From: a virus
Length of the DNA: 64,000 nt
IMG/VR virus record: IMGVR_UViG_3300045988_153472
Reading direction: 5' to 3' (one strand)
The notes beneath the pieces are model-generated. The model was not told the DNA's origin, ran no database searches, and saw only the letters and a program-made list of their open reading frames with translations. The position numbers and the translations under genes were made by a program. Shown here piece by piece: positions 4,063 to 64,000 of this stretch. Numbering within the stretch: position 1 is the stretch's first letter; every line of letters begins with the position of its first letter.

Positions 4063-6349
4063 TTACAAATCTCCTTTTTTAAATATTCAATATATTTGTC
4101 CCATTCACCTAATGAATGGATATATTCTTTAGTTTTTAAACATTTTTTCTTCATATCTTTTTTCAAATCAATTGTCCTATACTGCTTACTTTTTTGAAGT
4201 TTATTGGTCAAAAAAGCGTCAGTTACCCTAGAGACTAACAAGTAATCCTTGTTGTCCATAGAATCCAAAATAGCATTGTATTCTGCTAAATCTTCCTCAG
4301 GAATAGGGTAATCACATTTGGGTAAGTTCTTAGTCGAGAAAGGACTAATATCTGATCCTGCAGTTGCAGGTTTAAGAAAAGATGCTACGTATTCTAACTT
4401 ACGAGCATGGAACTTAAATTCTATTTCTTTATCATTTTCCATGATACTTCGTACAGTTCCTTCATCTTCAAGTGCTTTGTATAATTCTTCATAAGTCTTA
4501 TATTCCGGCAACCCAATATCATTAGCTATAGCTTTTAAAATATTGTGTCCTCTTCCTATAGATGGGATATAAGCTACAAGAGTAGAAAAACCATAATGAT
4601 ATATCTGAGCACCACCATAGCATTTGATATAAATATCATCAAAACTTGGGTCTATTCCTCCAGAGTCATCTCTGGGATAATCATTGGTACTTTGATCTAT
4701 TGCAGCTTTTAGTCTGTAAGTACCTTTATATTTCATTAGATATTTTGCCATTTAAAAACCTCTTTAGAATCAGTTCCTTTCTTAAATCCAAAGAACGGAA
4801 CATCTTCTTTAAAAGTATAATCATCATTAATATAGTAACAAGGATGTTCTTTTGTCTTTATAAGGAAGCATTCCTCTTGCGTTAACTCACAACAATTAAA
4901 CAAATAACTTTCTCTGTAATAATCACAATTGTAACAATTCATTAAATCACTGTCCTATCATTTCCTTAGTAATTTCTTTATATTTTGCTTTATAACCATA
5001 CTCCCATTTTGAATTTAAAATTATAAGAACAGAATTTTCTACATTATTAGAAAATCCAATTAAACAGTTTGCGTATTCATACTCCCTATCTTTATCGAAA
5101 TCATAAGGATTTGAAATTTTTACCGTTCTAATTTCTTTTAGCTTTTTAATACACGCATTATGACTATATGATGATGATGGTAATGTCACCAAATAATACT
5201 TTCTATTTCTCCAATCCATAATTATTTCCTAAACTCCTCTGCTAAAATTTCAAATTCCACATCATCATGCAACTTTCCATCCATTAATTTACATATTTGT
5301 TTATGATAAGCACACTCTCTGCCGCCATGCTCCTTAATAAAATTTCTGTACCCACGAATAGCCGGATTGTCTGCTATACAGCTCCAACAAAGTCTATTCA
5401 AATGGTATTTCTCAAAGATGTCACATATGATTTGATATAAATCTTTAGCAAATAATACATTACCTTTATCAAAACTAATTGCACCAAAACGATCAGCGCT
5501 CATTGTTACAAAGCTAACAGAATATGAAATATATCCTAATATATTGCCGTCATTGTCAACAGAAACAAAATGATGAGAATCATAATTGTTGTCTGGAATA
5601 TCCGGTTCTTCAACTCCAGACCAACCAGAATAATACATATATTCTTCGTTGTACCAAGTCTCTATATATTTCTTTTTTATTTCTTCTTTATATAATTGTG
5701 CTGGTTTGATCATTCTCTATTCCTCATATTGTCTTAACTCATTGATAAAGGTAACAAAAACGCCCACAGGCACCATGGCGATTCTGTAATTTTCATGCCT
5801 ATTATTACTGCTACTGCAGTTGAAATCCATGCTATTGCTTTTGCAAATTCCATATATTAATTCTCCTTTAATACCATAATAACTGCATTACACATACCAA
5901 TAATTCTTTGAAATTTTTCATCCTTCATACGAGCATTTGCGCTAGATATCTCATATCCATTTTTCGCAAGCTCTTTTATTTCAGACATCCATTCTACAAC
6001 AATATTACTGCCAGATTTTTCTTTAAGCTGATTTTCAGCATACATTCTTTCTTTATCAATAACTTCTTTATCAATCATTGTTAATATTCCTCATAGTCAG
6101 TCTCATCACTGATATTTAATTTATGTTTCTCAGCTTCATGTACTTTATTCAATGCGACTTTTTTACTATCAAATACTACTTCTCCTACAGTATTAAATCC
6201 TAAGAGATACTCATGTTTATCTCTTTTATCCATACCTACAAAGTAGGTGTCTGTAACTGTACGAACAGTTAAGTCACAGACATCATAAATACCTACTGTA
6301 GGAAAAATTCTTGTATAATAGAGCTTGTCACCTTTTTCTATTACTTTCA

Positions 6350-9030: not shown

Positions 9031-10348
9031 TTTATTCCTCCATCATATATTTAATAAACAAAGCTGCATCATCAGGGTTCTCACAATGCAATTCAAGAGT
9101 ATCTAATAAAGTGTCCCCTGACTGTACCAAAGCAGTTAAAACAAATCTGCATAACTGACTGTTAAGGACAATATTGTCACCTTCCGGTGAGACAATATCT
9201 ACTCTTCCTTTACATTTATCTACTACTTTAAAAAATGATTCAAAATCTTTAATTCTATTAATTTTCACTCTTGTCCTCCTTATCTCTCAAATCATCTTTT
9301 CTAAACATACTGCGTAATCAACTTTTCGTGAAATTTCATTGAATACTACATTCTCAGATACTTTGCCAACATACCAAAAATAAGGACTAATACCTTCGTT
9401 CATTTTTTCTGCTAATTTATCTGCTCTTTCCTGGTGCTCATATGCTATATTGCCATATTTAAGTTTCTCTGAATCCCATACAGTATTCCCTATCTTTGTT
9501 TTAAATGTTAAATATGATTCATACTCTTTAATATATTCTCTAACTACCGAAAGCATTTTAGGGATATTTTCTTCTAGCACTGGATCACCAATAAATTCCA
9601 CTGGATACACGACAATGATGTTGATATGTGGCGGTTCCATACTAGCAACTTCTTTTACACAAAAGTTTTTGTCATCTAAAACTATTATTTTAGTTACCTC
9701 CCTTCTACTAATTCAAATTCTTCTTTAAATTCTTCGTCTGTATAGCAATTCCATGTATAATCTTCTAATCCTAAAACATACCACCGATTATAGAAGTAAT
9801 ATGTTCTATACCAACCGAGATGTTCAACAATACAATGCCTGTCATTATCTTCTTTGATAAATATATGTTCACCATCAATATTAGGCTCAAATATTTTCAA
9901 AACTTCTTCTCGATTTTGTTTTGTTAAATATATACACTCATATTGTTCTTTCCTCACACATTTCATTGTTATCTCCTATGAATAATTGAAAATCATTAGC
10001 TTCACAACAAGCTGCTTTATATAGAGTAGCCATAGAAAATACTTCTCCTGGCTGGAATCTATCTACTTCTTTGTATCTATAACAGGATTCTTTTTTAGGA
10101 CAATCCACTAACTCTCCTGCACAGAAAGTAATATCGTGACTAAACGCCATAATACCCGCCTCCCATCGGTTCATTAATAAATTCATCTATTGATCTATAG
10201 TCTTTAAGCATAGCAATTGCTCTACATAAGATGCCTTCTATTTCACAATATTGAGCGCTATCAGCAATATCTGATAATCTATCAATCACCTGTGTAATTG
10301 TCATATTCTTATATGATGGCTCTTTGTATTCATCCATATTTATACCTC

Positions 10349-23949: not shown

Positions 23950-24720
23950 TCATGCCTCCTCTTCAAAGATGCTTCCGCTAATACCTAAGGCTTCAGCAAG
24001 TAGTGTTTTCAGAGGTTCTGATGGATTCTGATCATTCAACCATCCTAAATAACTATCTGGAATTTCAGAGAGTGGTTCTCCCTTATGTTTGCCGAATGGC
24101 ATAAGATATGTTTCTGGTGTAGGTTTGAATTCTTTCATCAGTTCATCTACTTCAGTTTCATCAAAAGATACTGTTAAATCTTTTCTTGATGCTAAATAAT
24201 CTGCTAAGTGAACTATCATCTGACCTTTTGTTTCTGGTAATGGTAGCTCATCTTTACTTCTTTTATCTGTGTTCCATTCACCCATATGTGAAGCACAACA
24301 GTCTGCAATATAATCCAATTCTTCATCTGGCAACCATTCAAATCCTTTATAGGATTTTATTCTCTCAGCTATAAGTAACGGGTGTTTAAAAAGAGTATAT
24401 TGACTGCCATTACGCCCAAGTTTTTCATCATCATGGTTCATAATAGCTGTTCGTAGCATATCTCTTTCTCTTGATGTAAACTGACTCTTGATACAATCAA
24501 TTGACAGCATATGATTTAAGAATCTAGTTGCTCCTTTTACATGTTTAGCAAGTCCCATAAAACCAACTGTATAATCAGGGTGATACTTGTTAGTACTTGA
24601 AGCAGACACTTGCCAGAAATATGTAGGCGCAGTATCTAGTAATTCAATACAAAATTCTTGAATATCATCATTTTCAAATACTTCTAATTCTTCCTTAAAA
24701 AATCTCTCTGCTAATGTCAT
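23950..24720 (-). CDS. HD-domain phosphohydrolase
   Basis: Spaced metal-ligand motifs: STNKYHP (H), IMNHDDEK (HD) and CASHMGEW (H). Confidence 0.5.
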   Translation of the reverse strand: MTLAERFFKEELEVFENDDIQEFCIELLDTAPTYFWQVSASSTNKYHPDYTVGFMGLAKHVKGATRFLNHMLSIDCIKSQFTSRERDMLRTAIMNHDDEKLGRNGSQYTLFKHPLLIAERIKSYKGFEWLPDEELDYIADCCASHMGEWNTDKRSKDELPLPETKGQMIVHLADYLASRKDLTVSFDETEVDELMKEFKPTPETYLMPFGKHKGEPLSEIPDSYLGWLNDQNPSEPLKTLLAEALGISGSIFEEEA

Positions 24721-26015
24721 ACAGTTTCCTCCTCAATAATTTCTTGTGCCTCTTCCATATCCGGTGTATCAGAGGAATCTTTTATCAATCCTTCAAGGAC
24801 CTTGAAAGTGAAATTCTTGTGTTTATAAGCCTTAAAGCTACTTCTATTATCAATTCTTACAACTACACCTTCTCTAACATGTGTCGCCCCTATTGGATCA
24901 GGCCCATCATAGTATTTTTCTATACGCTCCATAAGATCTTCTTTAGTAGTAAACAGGAATTTATCAAATTCAGGTACATGTTTAACTCCTAAACGATCAC
25001 ACCAATTCTTTACTTCTTCCCATGGAATCTCTGTAATAATCCCATCTTCATTGGTCATAGTCATTCTATAAACATAAATATCAGAAGTACCAGGAGTACA
25101 CCCATAAGAGAACACTGTTTCATCACCGTAAAGCTTCTTAACTTCTTTATCTTTAATTTTAGTGTTGGAACAGGTTCCCATAATGGTCTGCTCTGTACCA
25201 TCAACCCACCCTACGATTTCATAAAACACTTCCATTCCTTTTGGCAGTTTGTCAATAAAGTAGTCATGATATTTCTGTCTAAATTTATCATTCCCATAGT
25301 AACTGCCTTCAAATGTATTGAGTACAACTCTTCTTGTTCCAGTAACTATTTTCCATTCTTTGATAACAGGAGCCGGTCTACAAAAAAGTTTCTGTAGTAG
25401 AGTCTTTTTCTTAGTAGTTACTTCTATTGCATTTGCTGTTCGACCAGATGTGCCATGCATTTTCAAAGTAATGTAACAAGTATCTCCTGGTTTAAAGGCA
25501 TTTAAGTTATATGCTAACTGTTCTGTATCAGCATGTTCTTTAAAATAAGGAAATTTATTTTTTAGATTTGGAGTTTTTACTTTCGGACCATTGTTAGATT
25601 TTTTATGATTTGATCTTGGAATATATTTTTTACAGATAACTGTCCCATCAAGTACAGTAATTTGATCTCCTAAAGATAATTTATTTATATCAGTCCATTT
25701 ACTAAGAGATTCTACTGGTAAAACCAATCCTTCTGATTTTTCACCTCGCAGTCTCATAGCTTTAATGTTTCGTTTTACAGGATCAAGATATCCACCTGTA
25801 GTTGTTCCATCTTCATTTTTAATACGCAGTAAATTGTTTTCTTTTGCAAATTCTTCTCCTAGCTGACCATCAACCGGGAAAAATACAACTTTCTGCCCTT
25901 CGTAATAACTTAAATCAACAATAACCGTATTTCCAAAAACGGTACCAAGCTGGAGCCTATCAGCATTGCTGTGTTTACGAAGTTGCTTAAGCTCAGTAAT
26001 GTAAGCACAATACAT
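24717..26015 (-). CDS. ATP-dependent RNA ligase, Rnl5-like (DraRnl/NgrRnl-type) with N-terminal extension
   Basis: Nucleotidyltransferase motif I LKMHGTSGR with the Lys at about residue 185, matching the K-x-H-G-T-N pattern of Rnl2/Rnl5 RNA ligases. It is preceded by an N-terminal domain of about 180 aa, as in DraRnl/NgrRnl. Confidence 0.6.
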   Translation of the reverse strand: MYCAYITELKQLRKHSNADRLQLGTVFGNTVIVDLSYYEGQKVVFFPVDGQLGEEFAKENNLLRIKNEDGTTTGGYLDPVKRNIKAMRLRGEKSEGLVLPVESLSKWTDINKLSLGDQITVLDGTVICKKYIPRSNHKKSNNGPKVKTPNLKNKFPYFKEHADTEQLAYNLNAFKPGDTCYITLKMHGTSGRTANAIEVTTKKKTLLQKLFCRPAPVIKEWKIVTGTRRVVLNTFEGSYYGNDKFRQKYHDYFIDKLPKGMEVFYEIVGWVDGTEQTIMGTCSNTKIKDKEVKKLYGDETVFSYGCTPGTSDIYVYRMTMTNEDGIITEIPWEEVKNWCDRLGVKHVPEFDKFLFTTKEDLMERIEKYYDGPDPIGATHVREGVVVRIDNRSSFKAYKHKNFTFKVLEGLIKDSSDTPDMEEAQEIIEEETV

Positions 26016-41170: not shown

Positions 41171-42638
41171 CTTTGTTTCTTCCGTTTAATCTGTCTCTGA
41201 TTTCTTTAAATATTTCTGTATGATATATTTCACCGTCTTTAAATACAGTTTTTAATGCCCCATCATAAACAAAGCTGTCATATCCATCTCTGCACCTTAA
41301 TTCTCCATTTTCATCGTAATATACATGACAACATCCTTTATGAGATTTCTTTAAATGGCTTACATCTGTCTTTGGATCTTTGTAAATCATAATCGGTTGT
41401 CCGTTAACTTCTCCAAATGTAGCTTTCATAGCAATGCCGAACATATCTCTGGTTACAACGACCATACGTCCATCAGGTTCTACAACTGCCGAGAAACAAA
41501 AAGCCCCAACTCCAAATACAATGTTGTTTGCAGCGAATCCTTTCTTCTCAAGTTCTTCCCATACCTTTTTTACATTGTTAAGAGTACAGCCATCACCATA
41601 GATAATTCCAATATGAGGGTCCAGTACTTTGTAACCTTTGCTATTTACTGATCCTTCAAATGTATTCCAGAGTTTTTCGATAGTCTTAACTGAAATCTCT
41701 ACCATATCACCAGAATCCGGACGAACCAAGAGCTTACCATTGTGCTGCATAATTTCTTTTTTGCAAGCTGGAAGAATATTGTCAATCATGTTCCAGTAAT
41801 CATATGTATCAGATACCATGCTGAAAGATGCATTCGGATATAATTCTGTAAGTAGTCTTTTCACAAATGTAATTTCGTCTCCGTCCACAGCATAATTTGA
41901 AGCCATGACCGCATGTTCGGTAGAAATCGCACCAATTCCAATATGACTCACGCTACAGTCATTGAAATAATATTTGTCCAAATAATCAATTGCCGGGATC
42001 GTACTTGTCTTATCAAAGGATAATAGCCAAGCAACGGAGCATCTCTCTGCTTCTTCCATACAGGACATTCCACGCATTCCAAAGTCTGAGCAGGCCATTT
42101 CAGGTCTTAAAATGTCGTCGCAGGTCTTTTTATAGTAGAAATTTGCCAGTTCTCTGTACATATGTCCAATTGTTGCATGAGCACACGGCTTCCAAAGCTC
42201 AACCTGCAGAATACACTCAATCCACTGCACAACCCATGCAAAATCTGGATGTGTATTCGTGATTTCAATGCATGGCACTCCCATAGGCACTAATGTACCT
42301 TCCGGTAATGCACGGATCTGAATCGGAAGATACCCTAATTCGTGAAGTTTAAGGATTGGAGAAATATCGTAATTTCCTTCTCCTAACTGAATGTCCATAC
42401 TAATTGTATAAAGTTCTTGAACTTCATCAGTGCTTAATTTAAAGAAATCTCTTTTAAAATATGTAATAAGATATTCTTTAATAAAAGCCTGCAGTCCGAA
42501 GAAAACCATATGATCCTGCTCCTTTAACATTGATCTTCTCGGAGTCCAATAAGAGACTAACTTCGTCAATCCTCTCGGAAACATATTGTGGTGTACTTGT
42601 TTGTAAGTATCGCTTAACAGAATTGCTAAGGTATCCAT
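41163..42638 (-). CDS. Nicotinamide phosphoribosyltransferase family protein (Nampt/NadV, or the NARP1 Namat-type enzyme)
   Basis: 491 aa. N-terminus ILLSDTYKQVHHNMFPRG matches Nampt LATDSYKVTHYKQYPP. Confidence 0.7.
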   Translation of the reverse strand: MDTLAILLSDTYKQVHHNMFPRGLTKLVSYWTPRRSMLKEQDHMVFFGLQAFIKEYLITYFKRDFFKLSTDEVQELYTISMDIQLGEGNYDISPILKLHELGYLPIQIRALPEGTLVPMGVPCIEITNTHPDFAWVVQWIECILQVELWKPCAHATIGHMYRELANFYYKKTCDDILRPEMACSDFGMRGMSCMEEAERCSVAWLLSFDKTSTIPAIDYLDKYYFNDCSVSHIGIGAISTEHAVMASNYAVDGDEITFVKRLLTELYPNASFSMVSDTYDYWNMIDNILPACKKEIMQHNGKLLVRPDSGDMVEISVKTIEKLWNTFEGSVNSKGYKVLDPHIGIIYGDGCTLNNVKKVWEELEKKGFAANNIVFGVGAFCFSAVVEPDGRMVVVTRDMFGIAMKATFGEVNGQPIMIYKDPKTDVSHLKKSHKGCCHVYYDENGELRCRDGYDSFVYDGALKTVFKDGEIYHTEIFKEIRDRLNGRNKDE

Positions 42639-42962
42639 TATTTTTTATCCTCCTCTTTGTCGTTTACAACTTTATCAATCTGATCAGTAATGTAATCAAT
42701 AACATCCTTGCCGGTTTTCCCAATTGCTTGAACATTGTCCGATGTTAGTTCATTTGCAACCATCATTGTATAAACGGTTTCGGTAGTTGGTGTAAGAACT
42801 GTTAAAATTACAGAAATAATCCCAATTGAAATAAATAACTTGAATCCATTCTTTGTTAAATCATCAAATCCTATCAAACATATTGCAAATGCAGCTACTG
42901 CAACAATCAGAAATAAAGTCCCCACTGCATCTGCTCTACTTGCAAAATAAATCAACCAAGGA

Positions 42963-43331
42963 CTAATAATTGGTTCCATACTTTCTCATCTCCTTTATAA
43001 TTTTATCAACTTCATATTCTCTTAAAATATCATCCACATCTTCTATATGAGAATATCTATTAGAGTGTCTATATGTAGCAATTTCATAAGCCATTGATTC
43101 AATCACGTCTTGTAAGCTTAGAAGTCTATCTTCCCATTTGTATGTTTCTGTACGGTAATCTGGTAATTCTCTTAATGGACATAATTTAGGAATCGTTGAA
43201 TGTTCTTTCCTTTTTAAGGAATTAATGTATTTATTTAATAATTGGCAATAATATCCATACGTTTCTAATTCTGAAAATGGGCATTCGTCACATGAATTAG
43301 GTTCTTCTATAGATAACATAACTTTACTCAT
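42963..43331 (-). CDS. Small Cys-motif protein (tandem paralog 1)
   Basis: MSK-led; SCDECPF ... CPLRELPD. Confidence 0.4.
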   Translation of the reverse strand: MSKVMLSIEEPNSCDECPFSELETYGYYCQLLNKYINSLKRKEHSTIPKLCPLRELPDYRTETYKWEDRLLSLQDVIESMAYEIATYRHSNRYSHIEDVDDILREYEVDKIIKEMRKYGTNY

Positions 43332-43611
43332 TATTATCTTCTCCTGTAATTTCTCTCAAACAATCATTCCAACCAATCTTGTAGCTAGGCATTTTTCCAT
43401 TGCTTTGAAAATACTCTCTTCCGTACACTCCTGTTAATTTCATTTTATCCGGCAATGGATTCAAAGGACATCCTTTCATTAACTCATCCCACGAATCACC
43501 AGCATTGAAATTTGCATTAGCATCTTGTACTGTGCATTCATCTGCATCGTTTAATAGCGGACAACGTATACATTTCTCTGGCGTATCAATCACTAATACT
43601 GATTTACTCAT
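43324..43611 (-). CDS. Small Cys-motif protein (tandem paralog 2)
   Basis: MSK-led; KCIRCPLL ... GCPLNPLPD. Shares the C-x-x-CP ... CPL..LPD pattern with the neighbour. Confidence 0.4.
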   Translation of the reverse strand: MSKSVLVIDTPEKCIRCPLLNDADECTVQDANANFNAGDSWDELMKGCPLNPLPDKMKLTGVYGREYFQSNGKMPSYKIGWNDCLREITGEDNNE

Positions 43612-43663
43612 TTTCTTCTCTTACCTCTTTTCTGCAAGAATGCTGCGTGTGTACAGGACTGAT

Positions 43664-44467
43664 TCATCTAAATCTCTCAACCAATTCAATCTTAGGACTT
43701 TCCAGATTTGTCAAAATCGTATCTGTCGTATAAATCTTCTCTATCAGTCCATTGTTTTTCAGAAGCTCTCCATCATAAACAGTGTTTTCACAATGAGTAA
43801 CATAAAGATAAATCTTACCTACACCGGCCTCTTTCAGCTTTTTAGCACTGTGATAAAAAGTTCCGCCTTTACTACAAATATCGTCTACAATAAGGATATC
43901 TTTACCTGGCAGTTGATTAATTTCACCTGATAAATCTAAACCTTTAATTTCTCCGGTCTCCCAATCTCTATTCTTAATACCGAAAGCATATGGAAGATGT
44001 ACTGCTGAAGAATATCTTTTCATAGATCCTGCATCCGGATAAAACATCATAAGATTATCACTAGCAATCTTCTTGACAGTATCCTCAATCATTCGATTCG
44101 GGGATCCTACATGTACTTTATTAAATAATGCAGCAGATACATCAGAATGTGGATCTAAAACTTCTACTTTTCCAAAATGTAATGAATTAATAGTCTGAGC
44201 AAAATATTTTAAAGTAAATAATTCGTTCTCATGCTTAACTCGGTCCATACGTGCATCTGGGATATAAGGCATATATAAATTAGGCACTACTCTATGGTCC
44301 CAACAATATCTAGTAATATATTCAACTGCTGTTAACTCTTCCATTGATTCAAAGAACCATTCAATATTATCTCTGCACCATCCTCCAATAGGAGGAATAT
44401 CCTTAAATAAGAATGTTCCATCCGGATATTTATCAAGTTTGATTTCTACACCGTTTAATTTAATCAT
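43664..44467 (-). CDS. Ribose-phosphate pyrophosphokinase (Prs)-family enzyme; candidate ADPR-PP synthetase
   Basis: KVEVLDPHSD (Prs DLH motif), YPDAGSMKRYSSAV, and DILIVDDICSKGGTF (PRPP-binding loop). Shorter than canonical Prs. Confidence 0.65.
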   Translation of the reverse strand: MIKLNGVEIKLDKYPDGTFLFKDIPPIGGWCRDNIEWFFESMEELTAVEYITRYCWDHRVVPNLYMPYIPDARMDRVKHENELFTLKYFAQTINSLHFGKVEVLDPHSDVSAALFNKVHVGSPNRMIEDTVKKIASDNLMMFYPDAGSMKRYSSAVHLPYAFGIKNRDWETGEIKGLDLSGEINQLPGKDILIVDDICSKGGTFYHSAKKLKEAGVGKIYLYVTHCENTVYDGELLKNNGLIEKIYTTDTILTNLESPKIELVERFR

Positions 44468-44983
44468 TCCAAATCTCCTTATAATTTATTTCTTACTGTT
44501 TAATAATCCTTACTTAACTTTTACTTATGCTCAATATCACAGGTAGTTATTACAGACGGATTATTCAAATGATTGCCATTACAGAAATTATTGATAAAAT
44601 CCACCTGTCTTTGGAGATAATCAATAGAATCACATAGTGAAACTTTTACATAACTTAATAATTCTGCGACAATTGTACTAATCTTAAACAGTTCATTTTC
44701 TTTATCATCGTATTCAACGCCATCTGCATGATTAAACGGTGAGGTTGCGTCAGCTGTTTTTATATAAAAATCATTATCCTCATTTTTATAAATTGAGCAC
44801 ACCCAAATAGTATCGTCATAAAGCCCATCAAACTCAAATACTTGTAAGGTTTCTGTATTGTTTTTTTCAACAAGTTTTGTAGTGATCACTCCATCACAGT
44901 CATATTTACGTAAGTAGTTCTGAATATCCTCTAATGTAATTTCTTCTAATTTCTTCATTTTCACAGTATTTTCTCCTACCATC

Positions 44984-45559
44984 TTATTTCTCTCCTATCA
45001 CATTAATCTGACAACTTTTCATCACCTCTAAAGCTGCTTTATGCTTCTCCAGTGTAGTTCCAGCGCAGCATGACGCATCTACTGTGATCTCTGCCTCCGG
45101 ATAATAAGTTTTGATAAGAAGAGCATTTGTGATAACGCAGATGTCTGTACACACACCTATGATTTCAATGTTTAAATTGTCTATATCACTGTCTGTCCCA
45201 AATATTTCTTCCCAATCCCAGCCTTCATAACCAAAAGTTGACTTTTTACATACCATAAAATTGTTATAATTATTTTTTACAGGATGAATTTCATCTATAA
45301 CCTCCCACCCTGAAGTTCGATATATACAATGTTCAACAGGAAGTTTTTTACCCTCAGAAGTATTCAAATAATCTGAATTATGTGTATCCATTGTATACAC
45401 TACATAATCCCCATTATTTTTATATTCTTCAAACTTTTCTTTAATTTTAGGTACAATAGCTTGAGCTTCCGGCGTACCAAGTGAACCGGTTACAAAATCA
45501 TTCTGTACATCAATAACAATTAAAATTTTCTTTTTATTTTCCACAAGCATTACCTCCAA
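44984..45559 (-). CDS. Isochorismatase-family hydrolase, nicotinamidase (PncA)-like
   Basis: ILIVIDVQNDF (catalytic Asp), TMDTHNSDY...VEH (possible metal ligands) and GVCTDICV (catalytic Cys). Confidence 0.5.
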   Translation of the reverse strand: MEVMLVENKKKILIVIDVQNDFVTGSLGTPEAQAIVPKIKEKFEEYKNNGDYVVYTMDTHNSDYLNTSEGKKLPVEHCIYRTSGWEVIDEIHPVKNNYNNFMVCKKSTFGYEGWDWEEIFGTDSDIDNLNIEIIGVCTDICVITNALLIKTYYPEAEITVDASCCAGTTLEKHKAALEVMKSCQINVIGEK

Positions 45560-57302: not shown

Positions 57303-57849
57303 CTTACCTTTCCTTGGTACAAAAAGATGGTTATTTACAGTTTATAGTATTTATGTAGTTTTTTCAATAGGTCTCCATCCTACAACACACTTATCTGTCC
57401 AATTTCTCCATTCATAATTTCCATATTTCCCTTTAACCATCATATCTTTTCTTATAGCTCCATCTTTTAAAAGAATTTCTACTTCCTTATACAGTTCAGG
57501 AAAGTCTCCCCATTCTGTGTGCCAACTCGTATTTTTACCTTCTCTACCTTTCAATTCTATTTAGCATTTATTTCTTATAGGGCTCACTGTTATATTTCCA
57601 TGCTGTTATTTCTACTCTAACTTCATCGTCGGTTAACGACCAATACCAATCTCCATCATTTCTATACGCAAATGCATCACAATAAGGCTCATGATCGTTA
57701 TATCCAATATATGTTACTTGTACATCTTCCATATCATCTGGTAATAAACCAGTACTAATGGGAGTCCAACTATTATTTTTCATATTAATCTCCATTCCGC
57801 CGCTTTGCGGCGGCACAAATAGTGATGAAAGATTTCTCTTTCCCCTACA

Positions 57850-59450
57850 CTGTGCAATAATAGTTTCAAGAAGCTATACTACAAAGCACGGGAGGAGGAG
57901 TTGTAGAAACCTTTCTCGTTTTAAGACAGCATATTAATCAGTGTAAGTTCTGCCTTTTCAAGCACAAATGAGCGGCATCACGAATCCGTACACTAAGAAT
58001 TGTTTAAACGCCTTGATTTAATTGTGTGGCAGTTCAGTCAATGGCTTCTTATCTTTTTACGAAAGGAGCGTTTGCTTATGAAAGTCACTTTTCAAACTTG
58101 TTGTGGCGTCGATGTTCACAAATCTTTTCTCGTTGCCACAATCATCAAAACATCCAGCGGCATTGAACCTTCCTATCAGAAAAGACGTTTTTCTACTTTC
58201 AACAATTCTATTCTTGAATTCAAGAAGTGGTTGCTTGAAAATGAATGCCTCTATGTCTGCATGGAATCCACTGGTAAGTACTGGATCCCTGTCTTCAATC
58301 TTCTTGAAGATGAAATCAATGTTACTATTGCTAATCCCAAGTGGGTTAAAGCTGTTAAAGGTAACAAGGATGACACAAAGGATTCGAAATGGATTGGAGA
58401 TTTGTTCCGTTTAGGACTGGTAAGGGGCAGTTATATACCTTGCAAAAAAATCCGTATTTTACGTGAATTTACAAGGTATCGCTACAAGCTTGTTTCCTGC
58501 CGTTCCAGTGAAAAGAATCGGTATCAGAATGCGCTTACTGTTTGTAATGTCGCATTAGACTCTGTTGTTTCCGATATCTTTGGGAAGTCATCCACATCCA
58601 TCATTGACTACCTTTTAGGGCAGTCTGGAACTTCTATTGACCATGAAGTGATTGCATCAAAACTTCTTAAGCGCCTCAAAGCTAAAGAAGATGCTGTTAT
58701 TGAATCCATTGAAGGATATCAGATGACTGATTCCCAAAAATATCGTATGCACCTCGTCCGTGCACATATGGATTATATCACAGCTGCGATCAATGATGTA
58801 GATTCTGAAATTGAATCTTTAATCTCTTCTGATCCTGATTATGAAAATGCTGTCGAGTTACTCTGTACCATTCCGGGTGTTAAATATGATAGTGCAATCA
58901 CCATCATCTCCGAAATCGGTATTGATATGTCTCAATTCTGTTCCTCTAAACGTTTATGTTGCTGGGCTGGATTAACTCCTGGCAGCAATGAATCTGCGGG
59001 TAAGAAGAAATCTGTTCGGATTACACGTGCCGGTGTCTACCTCAAACCTGCATTAGTACAGTGTGCCCATGCAGCCGTGAAATCTGACAAATCCCCTTAC
59101 TACAAAAAGAAATATGAATCTCTTGTAAAACGTCGTGGTAAGAAACGAGCTATCATTGCAATCGCAAGAATGATTCTCACTGCAATCTTCCAGATGTTAA
59201 CAACTGGAGAAACTTGGAATCCCTGCGATCTTTACAAAATCGATATGCCTGAAGCTTTACTGGAAAAGCAAAAGCAAAAGGCAATCAAACAAGCTCAGAA
59301 ACTGCTAATTCGTGAAGGTTTATTGCCTCCAACCGAACCAATAGCTTCTTGATTTTTGATTACTACATATTGCTTTCTAAAAGTTGCCTTTACAGGTAGC
59401 TTGTTTCAGTGCGCCACTTTTTGGCTGCCCTCTACTTTCTTTCACACTAT
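57850..59450 (+). mobile_element. IS110-family insertion sequence (boundaries approximate)
   Basis: Single plus-strand gene in a minus-strand block, with locally higher GC than its surroundings. A GC-rich hairpin CCGCCGCTTTGCGGCGG lies at about 57798-57814. Confidence 0.5.
58078..59352 (+). CDS. IS110-family transposase
   Basis: N-terminal DEDD-type domain MKVTFQTCCGVDVHKS...; C-terminal transposase_20-like region (...LCTIPGVKYDSAITIISEIGIDMSQF...). The start was taken at the ATG after an AAAGGAG RBS rather than at the upstream ORF start. Confidence 0.8.
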   Translation: MKVTFQTCCGVDVHKSFLVATIIKTSSGIEPSYQKRRFSTFNNSILEFKKWLLENECLYVCMESTGKYWIPVFNLLEDEINVTIANPKWVKAVKGNKDDTKDSKWIGDLFRLGLVRGSYIPCKKIRILREFTRYRYKLVSCRSSEKNRYQNALTVCNVALDSVVSDIFGKSSTSIIDYLLGQSGTSIDHEVIASKLLKRLKAKEDAVIESIEGYQMTDSQKYRMHLVRAHMDYITAAINDVDSEIESLISSDPDYENAVELLCTIPGVKYDSAITIISEIGIDMSQFCSSKRLCCWAGLTPGSNESAGKKKSVRITRAGVYLKPALVQCAHAAVKSDKSPYYKKKYESLVKRRGKKRAIIAIARMILTAIFQMLTTGETWNPCDLYKIDMPEALLEKQKQKAIKQAQKLLIREGLLPPTEPIAS

Positions 59451-60584: not shown

Positions 60585-62150
60585 TTTTCACCTCCACTGT
60601 TTCTTTCTTTTACTCTGCATCTTCCAGCCTGACACTTTTGATCCTCTTACATGATCCCATGAATCTGTTTTTCTTTTTGGCTTTATAGGTTTGAGAGTAA
60701 TACCATATTCATATTTAATCTCTTTTATTTCTTCTGGTGTAATACTTTTACGCTGATCCGGCTCTGTTGAAGCCCGATGAATATTCCATCCATGATGTTT
60801 ATGATATGTACGATAATATTTCTTCTTATATTTCTTAGTAAGCTGATGAAAATCCCGTACATTACCATGATCGTCTATAATCAAATATCTGTGATATTCG
60901 TGAGTGCAAATCATAAAATCCCAATTATTATCTATTTTTAAATATTCATCATCAAAATAGTTAAATGAATGGTAAAAATTAATACTTCTCATACTGTATG
61001 GGAACTTTAGCTTAAAGTATGTATACAGTTCTTTAGTCCCTTCTACACATCCTACATATTCCCATGGGAGCCATTTGTATACGATCCATTTAAAATGACC
61101 TTCTGCGCATTTTGTACGCTGCATATAAATACGGTATTCTCTCATATCTACTCTCCTATTAACCTCTCTCAAGAAGAGAGAGGTTTCCTTTTATATAGCG
61201 CAAAGAAATCTATGAGTATCTTTTTCATACTTATATATTTTCCTTGTGAGGAAATCTTCTTTAGGTGTCGCTTCTTCCAACGTATCCTGTAAGATTATTG
61301 ATAAGTCTACCGCATCAACAGCGTCTGCTTTATGTACCATTACCTCATGTACACTGGTAAACACTAAATACAAATCTGAATCCAGTACACCAGCAAAGCG
61401 TTCAGCCACACCGGGATAAAATATAGCTACCGCACCGTTTGTTTTCTTTGCTGTAGTTAGACAATTTCCAATAAGATCTTGGCTAATTGCTTCTTCTGTA
61501 CCAGGACTCATAAACTCTTCTCCTTCATATTCCGGATTAAAGAGCATCTGATCCCATCTGTAAATTCTCGGTGGATACATACGTTCTGTGTTTCTTAATG
61601 CTTCTTCCAGAATATTGCCTTCACTTAAGGCCAAACCATCTTCTTTCCATTTCTCTACTACAGATTTAAAAATCTTAGTGCTCATAATGTTTCCATCACA
61701 TTCAGACACCTTCATATATAATACCTGAGCAATATCACCTATTCTTTTATAAACAGCATTACTCAATTCTTTAGAATTATCATCATAATTAAGCAGCCTT
61801 ATAAAAAGAGAATCTTTAACAGTTTCATAGTTCCAAATTTTCTTTGTTTTTTCATAAGAATTTTGTCCTTGCAACTGTCTAATGTCTCTTACAGTACTAT
61901 CAAGAATGGTGTCAAACGATGTTCCATTTAAGAATTCTCTAAAAAGCTCTTTTGTATGTATTCCACAGATCTCATAGGCATCATCATGCTCTGCAAACTT
62001 CACCAGCAGTCTGTCTCCTGTCGGAGAAAATCTATCTCCATCTTTTGAAAATTCTATATTCTCAATAGGAATGTTGATAGCTGCACTTATTTTATTTTTA
62101 AGTTCTTCCACAAACATTTCATAGTTCATCATAACTAATCCCTCTCTTTC

Positions 62151-62918
62151 TTAACCCATATGGTTACATGAATACTCTGATATTTCTTCTAATCTTTCAA
62201 CTACATAGTCAGGCAAATATCCACATTCTGAACATATACAAATTTTACCAAGAACATATAGGCATACCTTATCTTCTGGGATACCCTTTCTTTTGAATGA
62301 TTCAGCCATAGGTTCGCACTCCTCGCTTCTATCTTTTTTACAATAGTATTGCGCAGAACATCTGTCACATCCATAAACAGCACCTTCAAAATTAGGAAAA
62401 TACCAATCTAATATATCTGACTCAATTCCGTTGCCATTGTCTCCTGAGCATTCTATCATTTGTGTACTGAAATCAAGAGGGACATACGGATCATTGCAGG
62501 AAAAGTCTCTTATATAAAAAGGCGCATGAACTCCGATTTCCATTTTAGAAATCCAAAAATTGACATAGTCTTTGTATGTATCACAGTTGATCCAATCAAT
62601 TACTCCCGGTAATTCTTCATAATGGTCAAGGCCAAACATCAATCTCAACTGAGTGTCAGCAATTTTTGTACAGTCCCACGATTTCTTTGAGTGTAAATAT
62701 TTACCTCTTTTTTCAGTAACAACTTCAAACACATCAGGATAATATTCTTCTACATAGCTATACATTTCAGAACAAGATTTATAATATTGTTTATAAAATT
62801 CTTTTATTTCTTGATATGCCGAATCAATAGTTACTGTGTTGTCGTTTGCTTTGCCAATAATAAAACTTGAAGAACTACTATTAGTTACAAATCCGTTACG
62901 AATCTTCAATGGTATCAC
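62151..62918 (-). CDS. Leader-family paralog P3 (Cys-rich C-terminal domain)
   Basis: Probable TTG start preceded by a GAAGGGG RBS, giving MKIRNGFVTNSSSSSFII. The C-terminal part carries many Cys residues (CDRCSAQYYC ... CICSECGY ... SCNHMG). Confidence 0.55.
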   Translation of the reverse strand: MIPLKIRNGFVTNSSSSSFIIGKANDNTVTIDSAYQEIKEFYKQYYKSCSEMYSYVEEYYPDVFEVVTEKRGKYLHSKKSWDCTKIADTQLRLMFGLDHYEELPGVIDWINCDTYKDYVNFWISKMEIGVHAPFYIRDFSCNDPYVPLDFSTQMIECSGDNGNGIESDILDWYFPNFEGAVYGCDRCSAQYYCKKDRSEECEPMAESFKRKGIPEDKVCLYVLGKICICSECGYLPDYVVERLEEISEYSCNHMG

Positions 62919-63467
62919 CCCTTCCTATATCATATGCTCTTTTACAATACTTCCAATCATTACACAACGATCCATCCATTTTCTTATAGCAACCTTTACA
63001 CAAGTATTCTCTGCTTTCTATGATTTTATTAAACTGCTCATAGTTTGCGTAGAATTCTTTCCGGTAGGTTCCATCTTCATCTTCAATAGTGCCTATATAG
63101 CCACCATCTGCTTCATCAAGAATGTCCGAATTAAAATATGGATACAGAAAGTCATAAATATCTTGCCCTAAGTCATCACCTAGGTACATGTATCCTTTCA
63201 TACAGAAGCTGGCAGTCAAGAACCACACTCCTTCTGAAAATTCTAATGTGTAAGTCGGATATAAAGCTCTATAATGATTCATCCATTTAGACTCTTTTAA
63301 TTCTCTATGCTGTAACAGTGGTTTTATATCTCTATCACAGCTCCGCTCGCTTGCAAGCACTGATAAATCATGTAACAGTTCATCTGGAAGATTTCTTTTC
63401 AATCCGAAAATTAATTTTCCTTCATAGTAATTTCCCATTTCTCCACACCCTTTCTAATGCTTGCATT

Positions 63468-63929
63468 TCAATGATGACTAATAGCAGCAAGACAACAATT
63501 CATATCCGGTACAACATGATGTTCAAGGGTTGAATACATAAGACCATCATTGTCTGAATAATTAATCTCTACAAATACAGAGTACCCTTGCATATCTTCC
63601 TCTAACTCAGACATCCTATCTGTTATTGCTTTATTAAGCTTTTCCTGGAATTCTTCCGTTTTTCGTATTTCAAGTTTCTTACTATAAGGTACATAGAGAC
63701 TGTCTTCTATCTCCCAAAGAGTCTGATAATAGATTTCTTCTGAATATCCTTCCAAAACATCTTCTCTATCCAACTTTGCAGCTTCCGTTACATCTCTTAA
63801 GATTTCCTCAAAGTATTCTTCTTCAAGATTTTCTTTCTGCAGCTCCTCTTTGATACTTTCTTTACTCTTGAAGCCAAGAATGAAACTACTACTGCTGCTA
63901 TTAGTTACAAATCCTTTTCTAATCTTCAT
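63468..63929 (-). CDS. Leader-family paralog P4 (acidic coiled C-terminal domain)
   Basis: ATG after a GGGAGG RBS gives MKIRKGFVTNSSSSSFIL. The C-terminus is Glu-rich. Confidence 0.55.
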   Translation of the reverse strand: MKIRKGFVTNSSSSSFILGFKSKESIKEELQKENLEEEYFEEILRDVTEAAKLDREDVLEGYSEEIYYQTLWEIEDSLYVPYSKKLEIRKTEEFQEKLNKAITDRMSELEEDMQGYSVFVEINYSDNDGLMYSTLEHHVVPDMNCCLAAISHH

Positions 63930-64000
63930 GATCAATCCTCCCATTCGACATCTTCTCTAGCTACACCAATTAATAATAAAAACTTTTCCATGTCAAAATT

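Follow-up and report, generated by a model that had tools for sequence, protein, structure and literature searches.

In a 64,000-nt stretch of viral DNA (IMG/VR record IMGVR_UViG_3300045988_153472; this whole stretch is hereafter called the window), two loci carry genes designated P1 to P5, whose products are all members of a single, very large family of small and acidic proteins defined by a conserved N-terminal motif. Both the arrayed and the single-copy versions of these genes are genetically linked to one SPASM radical-SAM-like protein family, and this linkage resists rearrangement. We read the motif as a recognition handle or modification site for the SPASM enzyme, with one enzyme serving many different protein bodies that would act as intracellular effectors; from the sequence comparisons below, we give this reading a probability of roughly 0.55. 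Confidence is high for the anatomy of the family (i.e., its motif, its phage arrays and its SPASM linkage) and moderate for the mechanism.

A six-frame scan of the window for the motif returned exactly four matches, P1 to P4, of which the 15 invariant positions among the first 17 residues can be written as M-K-I-R-[KRN]-G-F-V-T-N-S-S-S-S-S-[FY]-I (MKIR[NK]GFVTNSSSSSF in P3 and P4). The corresponding family-wide pattern is M-K-x-R-x-[DG]-[FY]-[VI]-[TS]-N-S-S-S-S-S-[FY]. The serine (Ser) codons of the P1–P4 leaders vary, with AGY codons mixed with TCN codons, and among 195 distinct leader DNAs the residues K2, R4 and S13–S15 are at least 96% conserved, with six Ser codons in use per Ser position. 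Since the Ser codons vary in this way, the motif is kept at the protein level and is neither a DNA repeat nor the product of a recent DNA duplication; i.e., it is under protein-level selection.

To gauge the size of the family, a leader-only profile of 36 columns was built from the four N-termini and run on 1.84 billion cluster representatives (50% identity). It matched 15,090 representatives at E ≤ 1e-3. Among the 150 matches listed, which are proteins of about 90–300 aa, nearly every alignment begins at residue 1. All four window proteins also match the profile of PHROG 7397, a family without annotation, albeit weakly (E-values of 8.1e-4, 6.7e-5, 1.8e-4, and 1.1e-4 for P1, P2, P3, and P4, respectively), over the leader only in P1 and P2 and over approximately the first 90 residues in P3 and P4; yet PHROG 7397 covers only a minor fraction of the family. 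When 148 family representatives were scanned with Pfam, four isolated matches resulted, none of them common to several members, and the library of papers searched contained nothing relevant on the motif string or on phage radical-SAM/SPASM systems of such a kind.

Scanning IMG/VR for the leader yielded 77 loci, mostly on contigs of 80–260 kb, and 84 loci were used for an analysis of the neighbouring genes. These 84 loci contain 338 motif genes, always in same-strand tandem arrays of two to nine, and across the array genes the motif starts at offset 6 relative to the initiator codon. When the open reading frames (ORFs) of the 84 loci were clustered with their leaders masked, the most widely shared neighbour proved to be a SPASM protein of ca. 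355 aa, encoded once per locus in 75 of the 84 loci. Its gene lies on the same strand as, and upstream of, the array in 74 of these 75 loci, at spacings between –109 nt (i.e., an overlap) and 6.8 kb, and immediately downstream of the array in the remaining one (L077). In contig L013, which matches the final 12 kb of the window at 98–99.5% identity (an insertion sequence (IS) element excepted), the enzyme gene occupies positions 5281–6345 and P4 is found at 10001, which in window terms places the enzyme gene ca. 3.7–4.7 kb beyond position 64,000. The decisive context of the window genes, i.e., a dedicated radical-SAM/SPASM-type gene linked to the arrays, is thus found outside the window. The SPASM gene is also flanked by a second tandem paralogue family, of ca. 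97 aa (consensus MK.G.KY.V.SW..M..E(F/Y)G...C...), which has four to six copies per locus and totals 158 members across 27 loci, and the sites of which (4202–5291 and 6649–6939 in L007; 2447–3268 and 4617–4922 in L005) fall beyond the window end in the relatives. A third multi-copy family, of ca. 91 aa, is present further upstream.

The linkage was also examined in the reverse direction, by searching the enzyme in one genome per GTDB species. This gave 407 relatives, mostly from Lachnospiraceae, Oscillospiraceae, and Erysipelotrichaceae, and 80 of their loci were taken for inspection. A motif gene was found in 69 of these 80 enzyme-anchored bacterial loci, and in 42 of the 48 in which the downstream flank measured at least 4 kb. 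The usual bacterial pair consists of a 124-aa gene (MKIRTDFVTNSSSSSFILARK...IDGDLSY) that ends 20–30 nt before the enzyme start; in other bacterial loci, the motif gene begins just past the enzyme stop. Two of the loci (L102 and L143) are single-copy cassettes in ordinary chromosomal surroundings without phage genes, and the annotated contexts comprise histidine kinases and an FtsX permease in one case and a type I-E CRISPR-Cas locus in the other. The occurrence of the linkage in such chromosomal contexts indicates that the pair is a module in its own right, for which phage synteny offers no explanation. In 30 of the 80 bacterial loci (L084–L163), an XRE-like helix-turn-helix protein of ca. 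100 aa (consensus MYPTIDMKATG.RIR.IM..RK.TVKDVQ.YL.LSSVQSIYHW..G...P.VDNLYALS.LF) is encoded directly ahead of the partner gene or behind the enzyme gene, which suggests a dedicated regulator; no further neighbour recurs in these loci.

The enzyme family carries the public label 'SPASM domain-containing protein' and comprises 4,055 clusters (90% identity) at E ≤ 1e-10. Pfam assigns the SPASM domain (PF13186) with an E-value of 7.6e-6 (26.6 bits vs. a cut-off of 21.5), and among 25 diverse enzymes C248, C268, C286, and C327 are invariant and C324, C333, C337, and C346 nearly so; the SPASM region is shortened in the enzymes of L076 and L077. A GG[AR]GD[PV] motif resembles the GGE motif, and the N-terminus bears a conserved extension of ca. 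50 aa. Searched against the PDB, the family profile retrieved SkfB (8.8e-6), PqqE (3.4e-5), anSME (7e-4), and BtrN (0.02), and all NCBIfam matches were sub-threshold, every one of them being to a peptide- or protein-modifying radical-SAM maturase. The three-cysteine cluster loop takes the form CX7CX6C in 79 of the 80 bacterial and 56 of the 75 viral loci and the form CxCx3Cx3C in 16 viral loci; the canonical CX3CX2C loop (CPNNCRFC) occurs in L077 only. Two enzyme genes are much longer, encoding 786 aa (L046, 5007–7367) and 778 aa (L065, 3972–6308), and that of L046 has NCBIfam matches to intein regions (N-terminal splicing region, intein-containing proteins) and therefore appears to carry an intein. 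Inteins are usually found in essential, highly conserved phage enzymes. Residues ca. 8–22 of the enzyme (alignment A6), DKKNKFVSxFNxxTGFY, loosely resemble the partner motif KIRKGFVTNSSSSSF, in that K-x-F-V-[ST] is followed by an aromatic residue some 7–8 positions on; this likeness may be a coincidence, or may reflect strand pairing with, or mimicry of, the substrate.

The leaders further co-vary within genomes. At motif position 6, 46 loci have D in all of their leaders and 36 have G in all, with two mixed loci, and the P3-, P4-, and P5-type subfamilies each occur in both D and G genomes (e.g., SD, SD, and KD at positions 5 and 6 of the L001 leaders vs. NG, KG, and IG in the window). That unrelated bodies change their leaders together fits one shared partner per genome, or gene conversion among leaders. 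On the side of the enzyme, five columns discriminate between the D and G states (e.g., K246 vs. Q/R), a comparison that encompasses about four independent lineages only.

Behind the shared N-terminus, the proteins fall into subfamilies, which were sorted by eye from their bodies and extreme C-termini. The P4 type ends in ...LEHE.xP...[SN]HH-COOH, the P3 type in ...CNHMG-COOH, and the P1 type in ...GRDG, and further subfamilies end in ...NVG or in ...DxDLSY (the common bacterial 124-aa type), next to zinc-ribbon-like types and others. When the subfamily alignments of P1–P4 were stripped of their first ca. 20 residues (the motif plus four more) and compared via hhalign, probabilities were 0.1–2.1%, and the P4 type compared with the 'NVG' type gave 82%; remote homology among the subfamily bodies was rejected on these grounds, this one pair excepted. 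Each subfamily is by itself conserved over its full length. Homologues of P3 range from 98% down to 35% identity at 99–100% coverage, and in an alignment of 32 of them (37–94% identity) the N-terminal motif and all five residues of CNHMG are invariant. Homologues of P4 are full-length at 73–99% identity, and in its subfamily alignment (A4) no or hardly any variation is seen in the leader, at E136 and P141, and at H153, with which the protein ends.

AlphaFold2 models of P3 and P4 (predicted local distance difference test score (pLDDT) of 81.6 and 92.2, respectively) show one topology, in which a first strand is followed by a variable insert (helical in P4; large and mixed in P3) and then by a strand-helix-strand unit that runs to an invariant His. 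Strand 1 is predicted to comprise residues 13–20, i.e., the second half of the motif (SSSF[IV][IL]), and the closing unit would bear an E-x4-P pattern in both proteins, with CNHMG trailing the last strand of P3. The only segment left unplaced in the models is the N-terminus itself, i.e., residues 1–11 of P4 (pLDDT below 50) and 1–14 of P3. From these models, the proteins are read as having a split core of small size, from which an invariant N-terminal arm extends that is exposed and flexible and no detachable signal peptide. A Foldseek search of the P4 model against BFVD gave no match. Likenesses to other proteins, i.e., pyruvoyl-type Ser-Ser self-cleavage, an SGNH-like Ser/His hydrolase, and a flavodoxin-like phosphate loop, were rejected, being without fold or profile support.

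This common topology could also mean that the motif does no more than supply strand 1 and the loop of a domain that is autonomous (with, e.g., a Ser/His/Glu catalytic or ligand site), the proximity of the SPASM gene being inherited synteny. The E-x4-P pattern and the invariant C-terminal His of both subfamilies would suit such a domain, as would the fixed C-terminal tails found elsewhere (NVG, GRDG, and DLSY) and the existence of polypeptides with two tandem motif copies (P0246, P0254, P0263, P0265, P0267, P0280, P0283, P0336, and P0338). In P0336, the second copy (…WPEDFVTNSSSTSF…) has no preceding Met or Lys-x-Arg, which implies that the motif can head an internal domain; the other two-motif proteins may be fused neighbouring genes. 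Nevertheless, the tails are chemically unlike between subfamilies, the abutting pair recurs in unrelated bacterial chromosomal contexts, and the linkage outlasts rearrangement, with gaps anywhere between –109 nt and 6.8 kb and, in L077, an enzyme gene downstream of the array. We therefore regard a self-sufficient domain next to a bystander enzyme as quite unlikely.

Several observations weigh against the motif being a handle or reaction site for the SPASM enzyme. As to sampling, the 77 viral loci are phylogenetically redundant and represent a few dozen lineages at most, and the regular expression by which the 195 leaders were collected had N-S-S as a fixed part, so that these three residues look more invariant than they are. 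As to linkage, no homologue of the SPASM gene was found inside the window by BLAST, the window lineage has nine small, unrelated genes between the enzyme gene and the array, and the arrays of L061 and L068 have no enzyme gene within 10 kb. As to the partner proteins, residues 13–20 are predicted to form a core strand, so that the motif is possibly conserved for folding, and an N-terminus that is invariant may receive a low pLDDT as an artefact of the modelling. As to the enzyme, its cluster loop is non-canonical (CX7CX6C in the window lineage), Pfam finds SPASM alone, with no match for Radical_SAM and no RRE (i.e., RiPP recognition element, RiPPs being peptides that are made on ribosomes and modified after translation) or PqqD-like domain, and no protease or exporter recurs among the 80 bacterial loci. 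A PqqD-like RRE measures roughly 85 aa and is longer than the N-terminal extension of the enzyme. The non-canonical cysteine loop and the missing Radical_SAM match mean that the protein could be a non-catalytic pseudo-enzyme.

It is the atypical loop and the lack of an RRE domain that keep the pseudo-enzyme alternative alive, and with it the possibility that the motif proteins are adaptors or specificity subunits, of which the N-terminus docks the bodies onto the SPASM protein and so steers an enzyme or scaffold to host targets. The data on the linkage between motif and SPASM gene apply equally to such adaptors, a docking partner common to all paralogues would account for the uniform motif position 6 within each genome, the loop permits a non-catalytic role, and the bodies are modelled as confidently folded domains, unlike peptide-like cores. 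On the other hand, the enzyme retains the three loop cysteines, the GG[AR]GD motif, and all of the SPASM cysteines, a run of five near-invariant consecutive Ser residues next to an Asn would be odd for a pure docking strand, and the strict position of this run at a free N-terminus fits threading into an active site. The Ser run and its strict N-terminal placement hence favour a reaction site over a docking strand, and we consider the adaptor role unlikely.

A preliminary description of the P3/P4 region had explained it differently, namely by a mobile leader (a targeting, packaging, or secretion signal) that was recruited repeatedly onto unrelated cargo, with P3 as a zinc-binding effector. Its premise holds insofar as the similarity between subfamilies is confined to the leader, which heads thousands of otherwise unrelated proteins with highly diverse bodies, and the arrays do lie in accessory regions of large phages. 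What does not hold is that the leader is detachable, given that residues 13–20 belong to the predicted fold as strand 1. Neither is there any sign of recent recruitment in this phage: P3 and P4 belong to old subfamilies, each conserved full-length, and ca. 28 close relatives keep the order P5-P4-(with or without a 109-aa gene)-ORF180-P3-DUF5688 (ORF180 being a 180-aa ORF without motif). The synteny comparison that had been proposed as a check for cargo swapping gave a divided answer, with little turnover among these close relatives, where three variants were seen (the 109-aa gene may be there or not, P3 is split in L031, and L067 has a deletion), and with other gene numbers (two to nine) and mixtures of subfamilies in more distant phages. 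The L067 deletion (9986–10759) removed P4 and ORF180 and fused the 5′ end of P4 to the body of P3, with the join inside a 17-nt leader stretch (GGATTTGTAACTAATAG) that is identical in P3 and P4. The position of this join is direct evidence that leader DNA can mediate deletion or swapping.

Such leader-mediated recombination would suit a mobile leader, as would the conserved CxxC...C...C cluster of P3, which is however missing in at least one homologue (P0090). A mobile leader further leaves the SPASM linkage unexplained and sits poorly with single-copy cassettes on bacterial chromosomes without nearby phage genes. The closest model for a packaging signal is provided by the internal proteins of phage T4, which carry an N-terminal capsid-targeting sequence that ends in a prohead-protease site (L/I-x-E) and is removed on maturation. 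The families are alike in having a short conserved N-terminal peptide on unrelated small bodies in plastic genome regions, and they differ in that the present motif contributes to a core strand, occurs in chromosomal cassettes outside phages, and is linked to SPASM. By inspection, there is no L/I-x-E type site in or after the motif, and a T4-like capsid-targeting sequence was rejected for this reason and because the family is not confined to phages (cf. L102 and L143). Taken as a whole, a mobile leader on unrelated cargo appears very improbable.

The zinc-binding part of that proposal started from the paired cysteines of P3, and these were indeed found: P3 has 14 Cys residues, of which C184, C187, C193, C201, and C219 are each kept by 90% or more of 32 diverse homologues, whereas C227 and C251 never vary (255-aa numbering). 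The spacing C184-x2-C187-x5-C193-x7-C201 is knuckle- or ribbon-like and lies in a low-confidence region of the model (pLDDT of 56–77). P3 matched no known zinc-binding family or fold, and a sequence search of the PDB with P3 found nothing. It is possible that the conserved cluster binds zinc; the cysteines could equally be cross-link sites, the SPASM partner being nearby.

In the reading that we prefer, i.e., the motif as handle or modification site, the flexible N-terminal arm would be recognised, and probably modified, by the SPASM enzyme, with the free N-terminus and its Asn-Ser5 run threading into the active site. A single enzyme would in this way mature many different bodies, as in RiPP systems with one enzyme and many precursors. 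Candidate modifications are the oxidation of Ser to formylglycine, epimerisation, and a carbon-carbon or ether cross-link, and from the strand order the invariant, subfamily-specific C-terminal tail would be expected near the Ser run. The functional part of each protein would be its body, probably acting inside the cell as an effector in host takeover or counter-defence, a role suggested by the very acidic nature of these proteins (isoelectric point (pI) of 4.1–4.7 in all) and by the accessory regions beside NAD-salvage genes in which they reside. A more far-reaching version, which we put forward tentatively and with some doubt, is that of a new maturation system in which the CX7CX6C enzyme modifies Asn-Ser5 and thereby arms up to nine acidic anti-host effectors per phage, a formylglycine-like aldehyde, D-residues, or a cross-link being the candidate products.

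By analogy, the system would work like radical-SAM/SPASM maturase-precursor systems, and it stands outside all curated families, the NCBIfam matches of the enzyme being far below the cut-offs of curated maturases. With SkfB/SkfA, PqqE/PqqA, and MftC/MftA, it shares an enzyme of ca. 350 aa with a full set of SPASM cysteines and adjacent small genes with a conserved recognition-like segment and a variable remainder. It differs from them in that the partners are folded proteins of 88–490 aa instead of peptides of 30–80 aa, that the conserved segment consists of the first 16 residues and is Ser-rich, that no RRE domain, protease, or exporter was found, and that the cluster loop is CX7CX6C in most members. 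Prochlorosins offer a parallel in genetic layout: ProcM, a lanthipeptide synthetase, is accompanied by ca. 30 ProcA genes and gives short secreted peptide products. Both systems combine one modifying enzyme with many precursor genes, a conserved leader, a hypervariable remainder, and within-genome expansion; the enzyme class differs, and the genes described here form tight tandem arrays in phage genomes.

Protein-sized partners are known from QhpD, a radical-SAM/SPASM enzyme that cross-links QhpC, a protein of ca. 100 aa that is recognised via an N-terminal leader; the modification consists of Cys-to-Asp/Glu thioethers, the leader is later cleaved, and the product is intracellular or periplasmic. 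The present system resembles this pair in its SPASM enzyme with a protein-sized partner and N-terminal leader, yet most motif proteins have no conserved Cys, and no sequence similarity was detected. Similarly, anSME/AtsB are SPASM enzymes that act on a Ser of full-length Ser-type sulfatases before or during folding (cf. the anSME match above), whereas neither the motif nor the sequence around it contains the sulfatase signature (C/S)-x-P-x-R and the partners are not sulfatases.

If the handle or modification-site reading is true, a testable function would be gained for over 15,000 clusters of proteins (50% identity) and over 4,000 of enzymes (90% identity) in gut and rumen Clostridia and their large phages, none of which has a name at present, and the radical-SAM logic of a leader plus one enzyme would extend from short peptides to viral arrays of folded proteins. 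The 16-residue recognition tag might then be portable for enzyme-directed protein modification, and the acidic phage set beside the NAD-salvage genes would provide candidates for host takeover or counter-defence. The bacterial two-gene cassette (124-aa partner plus enzyme) is a simple experimental entry, an example being the pair of Dorea sp. 5-2 (L102, 9600–9974 and 9989–11080).

At the locus next to the window end, all genes lie on the minus strand in the order P5-P4-ORF180-P3-DUF5688 and are tightly packed, with gaps of 2, 29, –14, and 18 nt. P5 (63932..64000) is cut by the window end, which leaves its last 22 codons and the TGA stop, 2 nt before the P4 start. This third leader-family gene of the locus had been missed previously. 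The last 69 bases of the window translate to NFDMEKFLLLIGVAREDVEWED followed by the stop, which is identical to the C-terminus of an 88-aa protein (MKLRIGFVTNSSSSSFTIAK...; L007, 9732–9998). In the relatives, P5 measures 88–94 aa with MKLRIGFVTNSSSSSF as its N-terminus, and its gene is directly upstream of P4 in all window-like loci.

P4 and P3 had been recognised correctly in the preliminary description as two minus-strand ORFs that start with the shared motif, although both had been drawn from starts too far upstream (63468–63944 and 62151–62918). P4 (63468..63929, minus strand) encodes a 153-aa protein of the 'SHH-COOH' subfamily from an ATG at 63929 with the ribosome-binding site GGGAGGA, in agreement with its 153-aa homologues, and its motif (MKIRKGFVTNSSSSSF) is encoded by 63882..63929. 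As previously described, it is Glu-rich and helical (16% Glu, pI of 4.6, mostly helical by prediction). P3 (62151..62909, minus strand) encodes a protein of the 'CNHMG-COOH' subfamily, most likely of 252 aa and initiated at a TTG at 62909, as judged from the ribosome-binding site GGAAGGGG, from homologues that start with MKIR, and from the upstream GTG being missing in the relative L007. Its motif ((M)KIRNGFVTNSSSSSF) is encoded by 62862..62909, its C-x2-C-x5-C-x7-C cluster by 62316..62369 (residues 181–198 of the 252-aa protein), and the invariant C-terminal pentapeptide CNHMG by 62154..62168.

ORF180 (62896..63438, minus strand) overlaps the P3 start by 14 nt and encodes an acidic protein with a C-terminal CxxC-x8-C-x5-C pattern. 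It had been called unrelated to the leader genes, and this is borne out by the absence of the motif and of BLAST similarity to any leader protein at E ≤ 1. It has no match in Pfam, NCBIfam, PHROG, or PADLOC, and its homologues are confined to the window-like lineage (cluster 10, 28 loci). The 313-aa product of 61191..62132 (minus strand, co-oriented, 18 nt downstream of P3), listed earlier as an unknown, is a clear member of DUF5688 (PF18941; E-value of 2e-46, 159.3 bits vs. a cut-off of 34.5, covering 1–290 of 290), and the gene stands beside P3 in the window-like lineage only (cluster 19, 26 loci). Scans of P1–P4, ORF180, and the neighbouring genes against Pfam, NCBIfam, PHROGs, and PADLOC gave PHROG 7397 and DUF5688 only.

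The other locus lies ca. 25 kb away. P1 (38029..38424, minus strand), its first gene, encodes a 131-aa protein of the 'GRDG-COOH' subfamily directly downstream of an NAD synthase gene, and P2 (37646..38029, minus strand) abuts P1 and encodes a 127-aa family member; an orthologous P1-P2 pair is present in L079 and L080. The NAD synthase gene (38627–39772) opens an NAD-salvage block (38627–45559, minus strand) that further comprises NAMPT (41163–42638), a phosphoribosyltransferase homologue (43664–44467), and an isochorismatase/nicotinamidase homologue (44984–45559), and in L001 the same block follows directly after the leader array. Directly after P2 comes a 172-aa Cys-rich ORF without motif (37118–37636, minus strand) with CxxC pairs (CRTCETIECHGC, FCPFCG), followed by an RlaP-like nucleotidyltransferase gene (36124–37158, minus strand), which together with an RNA ligase gene (24717–26015) may point to a set for RNA repair. 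A short way downstream of the P1-P2 pair, a complete P-type cation-transporting ATPase of 873 aa (33500–36121, minus strand; E1-E2_ATPase, Cation_ATPase_C, and hydrolase domains) constitutes an unusual auxiliary phage gene.

The window as a whole has nearly all of its genes on the minus strand and a GC content of 31–37%. Besides NAMPT, the cation ATPase, and the RNA ligase, the products of its large ORFs include a class II-like ribonucleotide reductase, a RecD2 helicase, a DnaB-like helicase, a split DNA polymerase III alpha, and an NAD-dependent DNA ligase. Neither the window DNA nor the P4 protein nor the leader peptide had a match among GenBank phages. Near-identical DNA was found on IMG/VR viral contigs of 85–250 kb and homologues are present in assemblies of Blautia and other Lachnospiraceae, from which it follows that the window is part of a large phage infecting gut Clostridia. 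Finally, an IS110-family element (57794–59439; DEDD_Tnp_IS110 and Transposase_20 domains) sits between two small phage genes, and its transposase ORF (58000–59352) is the sole large plus-strand gene of the window. The element is missing from the otherwise 98–99.5% identical L013, where its flanks meet with a 16-bp overlap.

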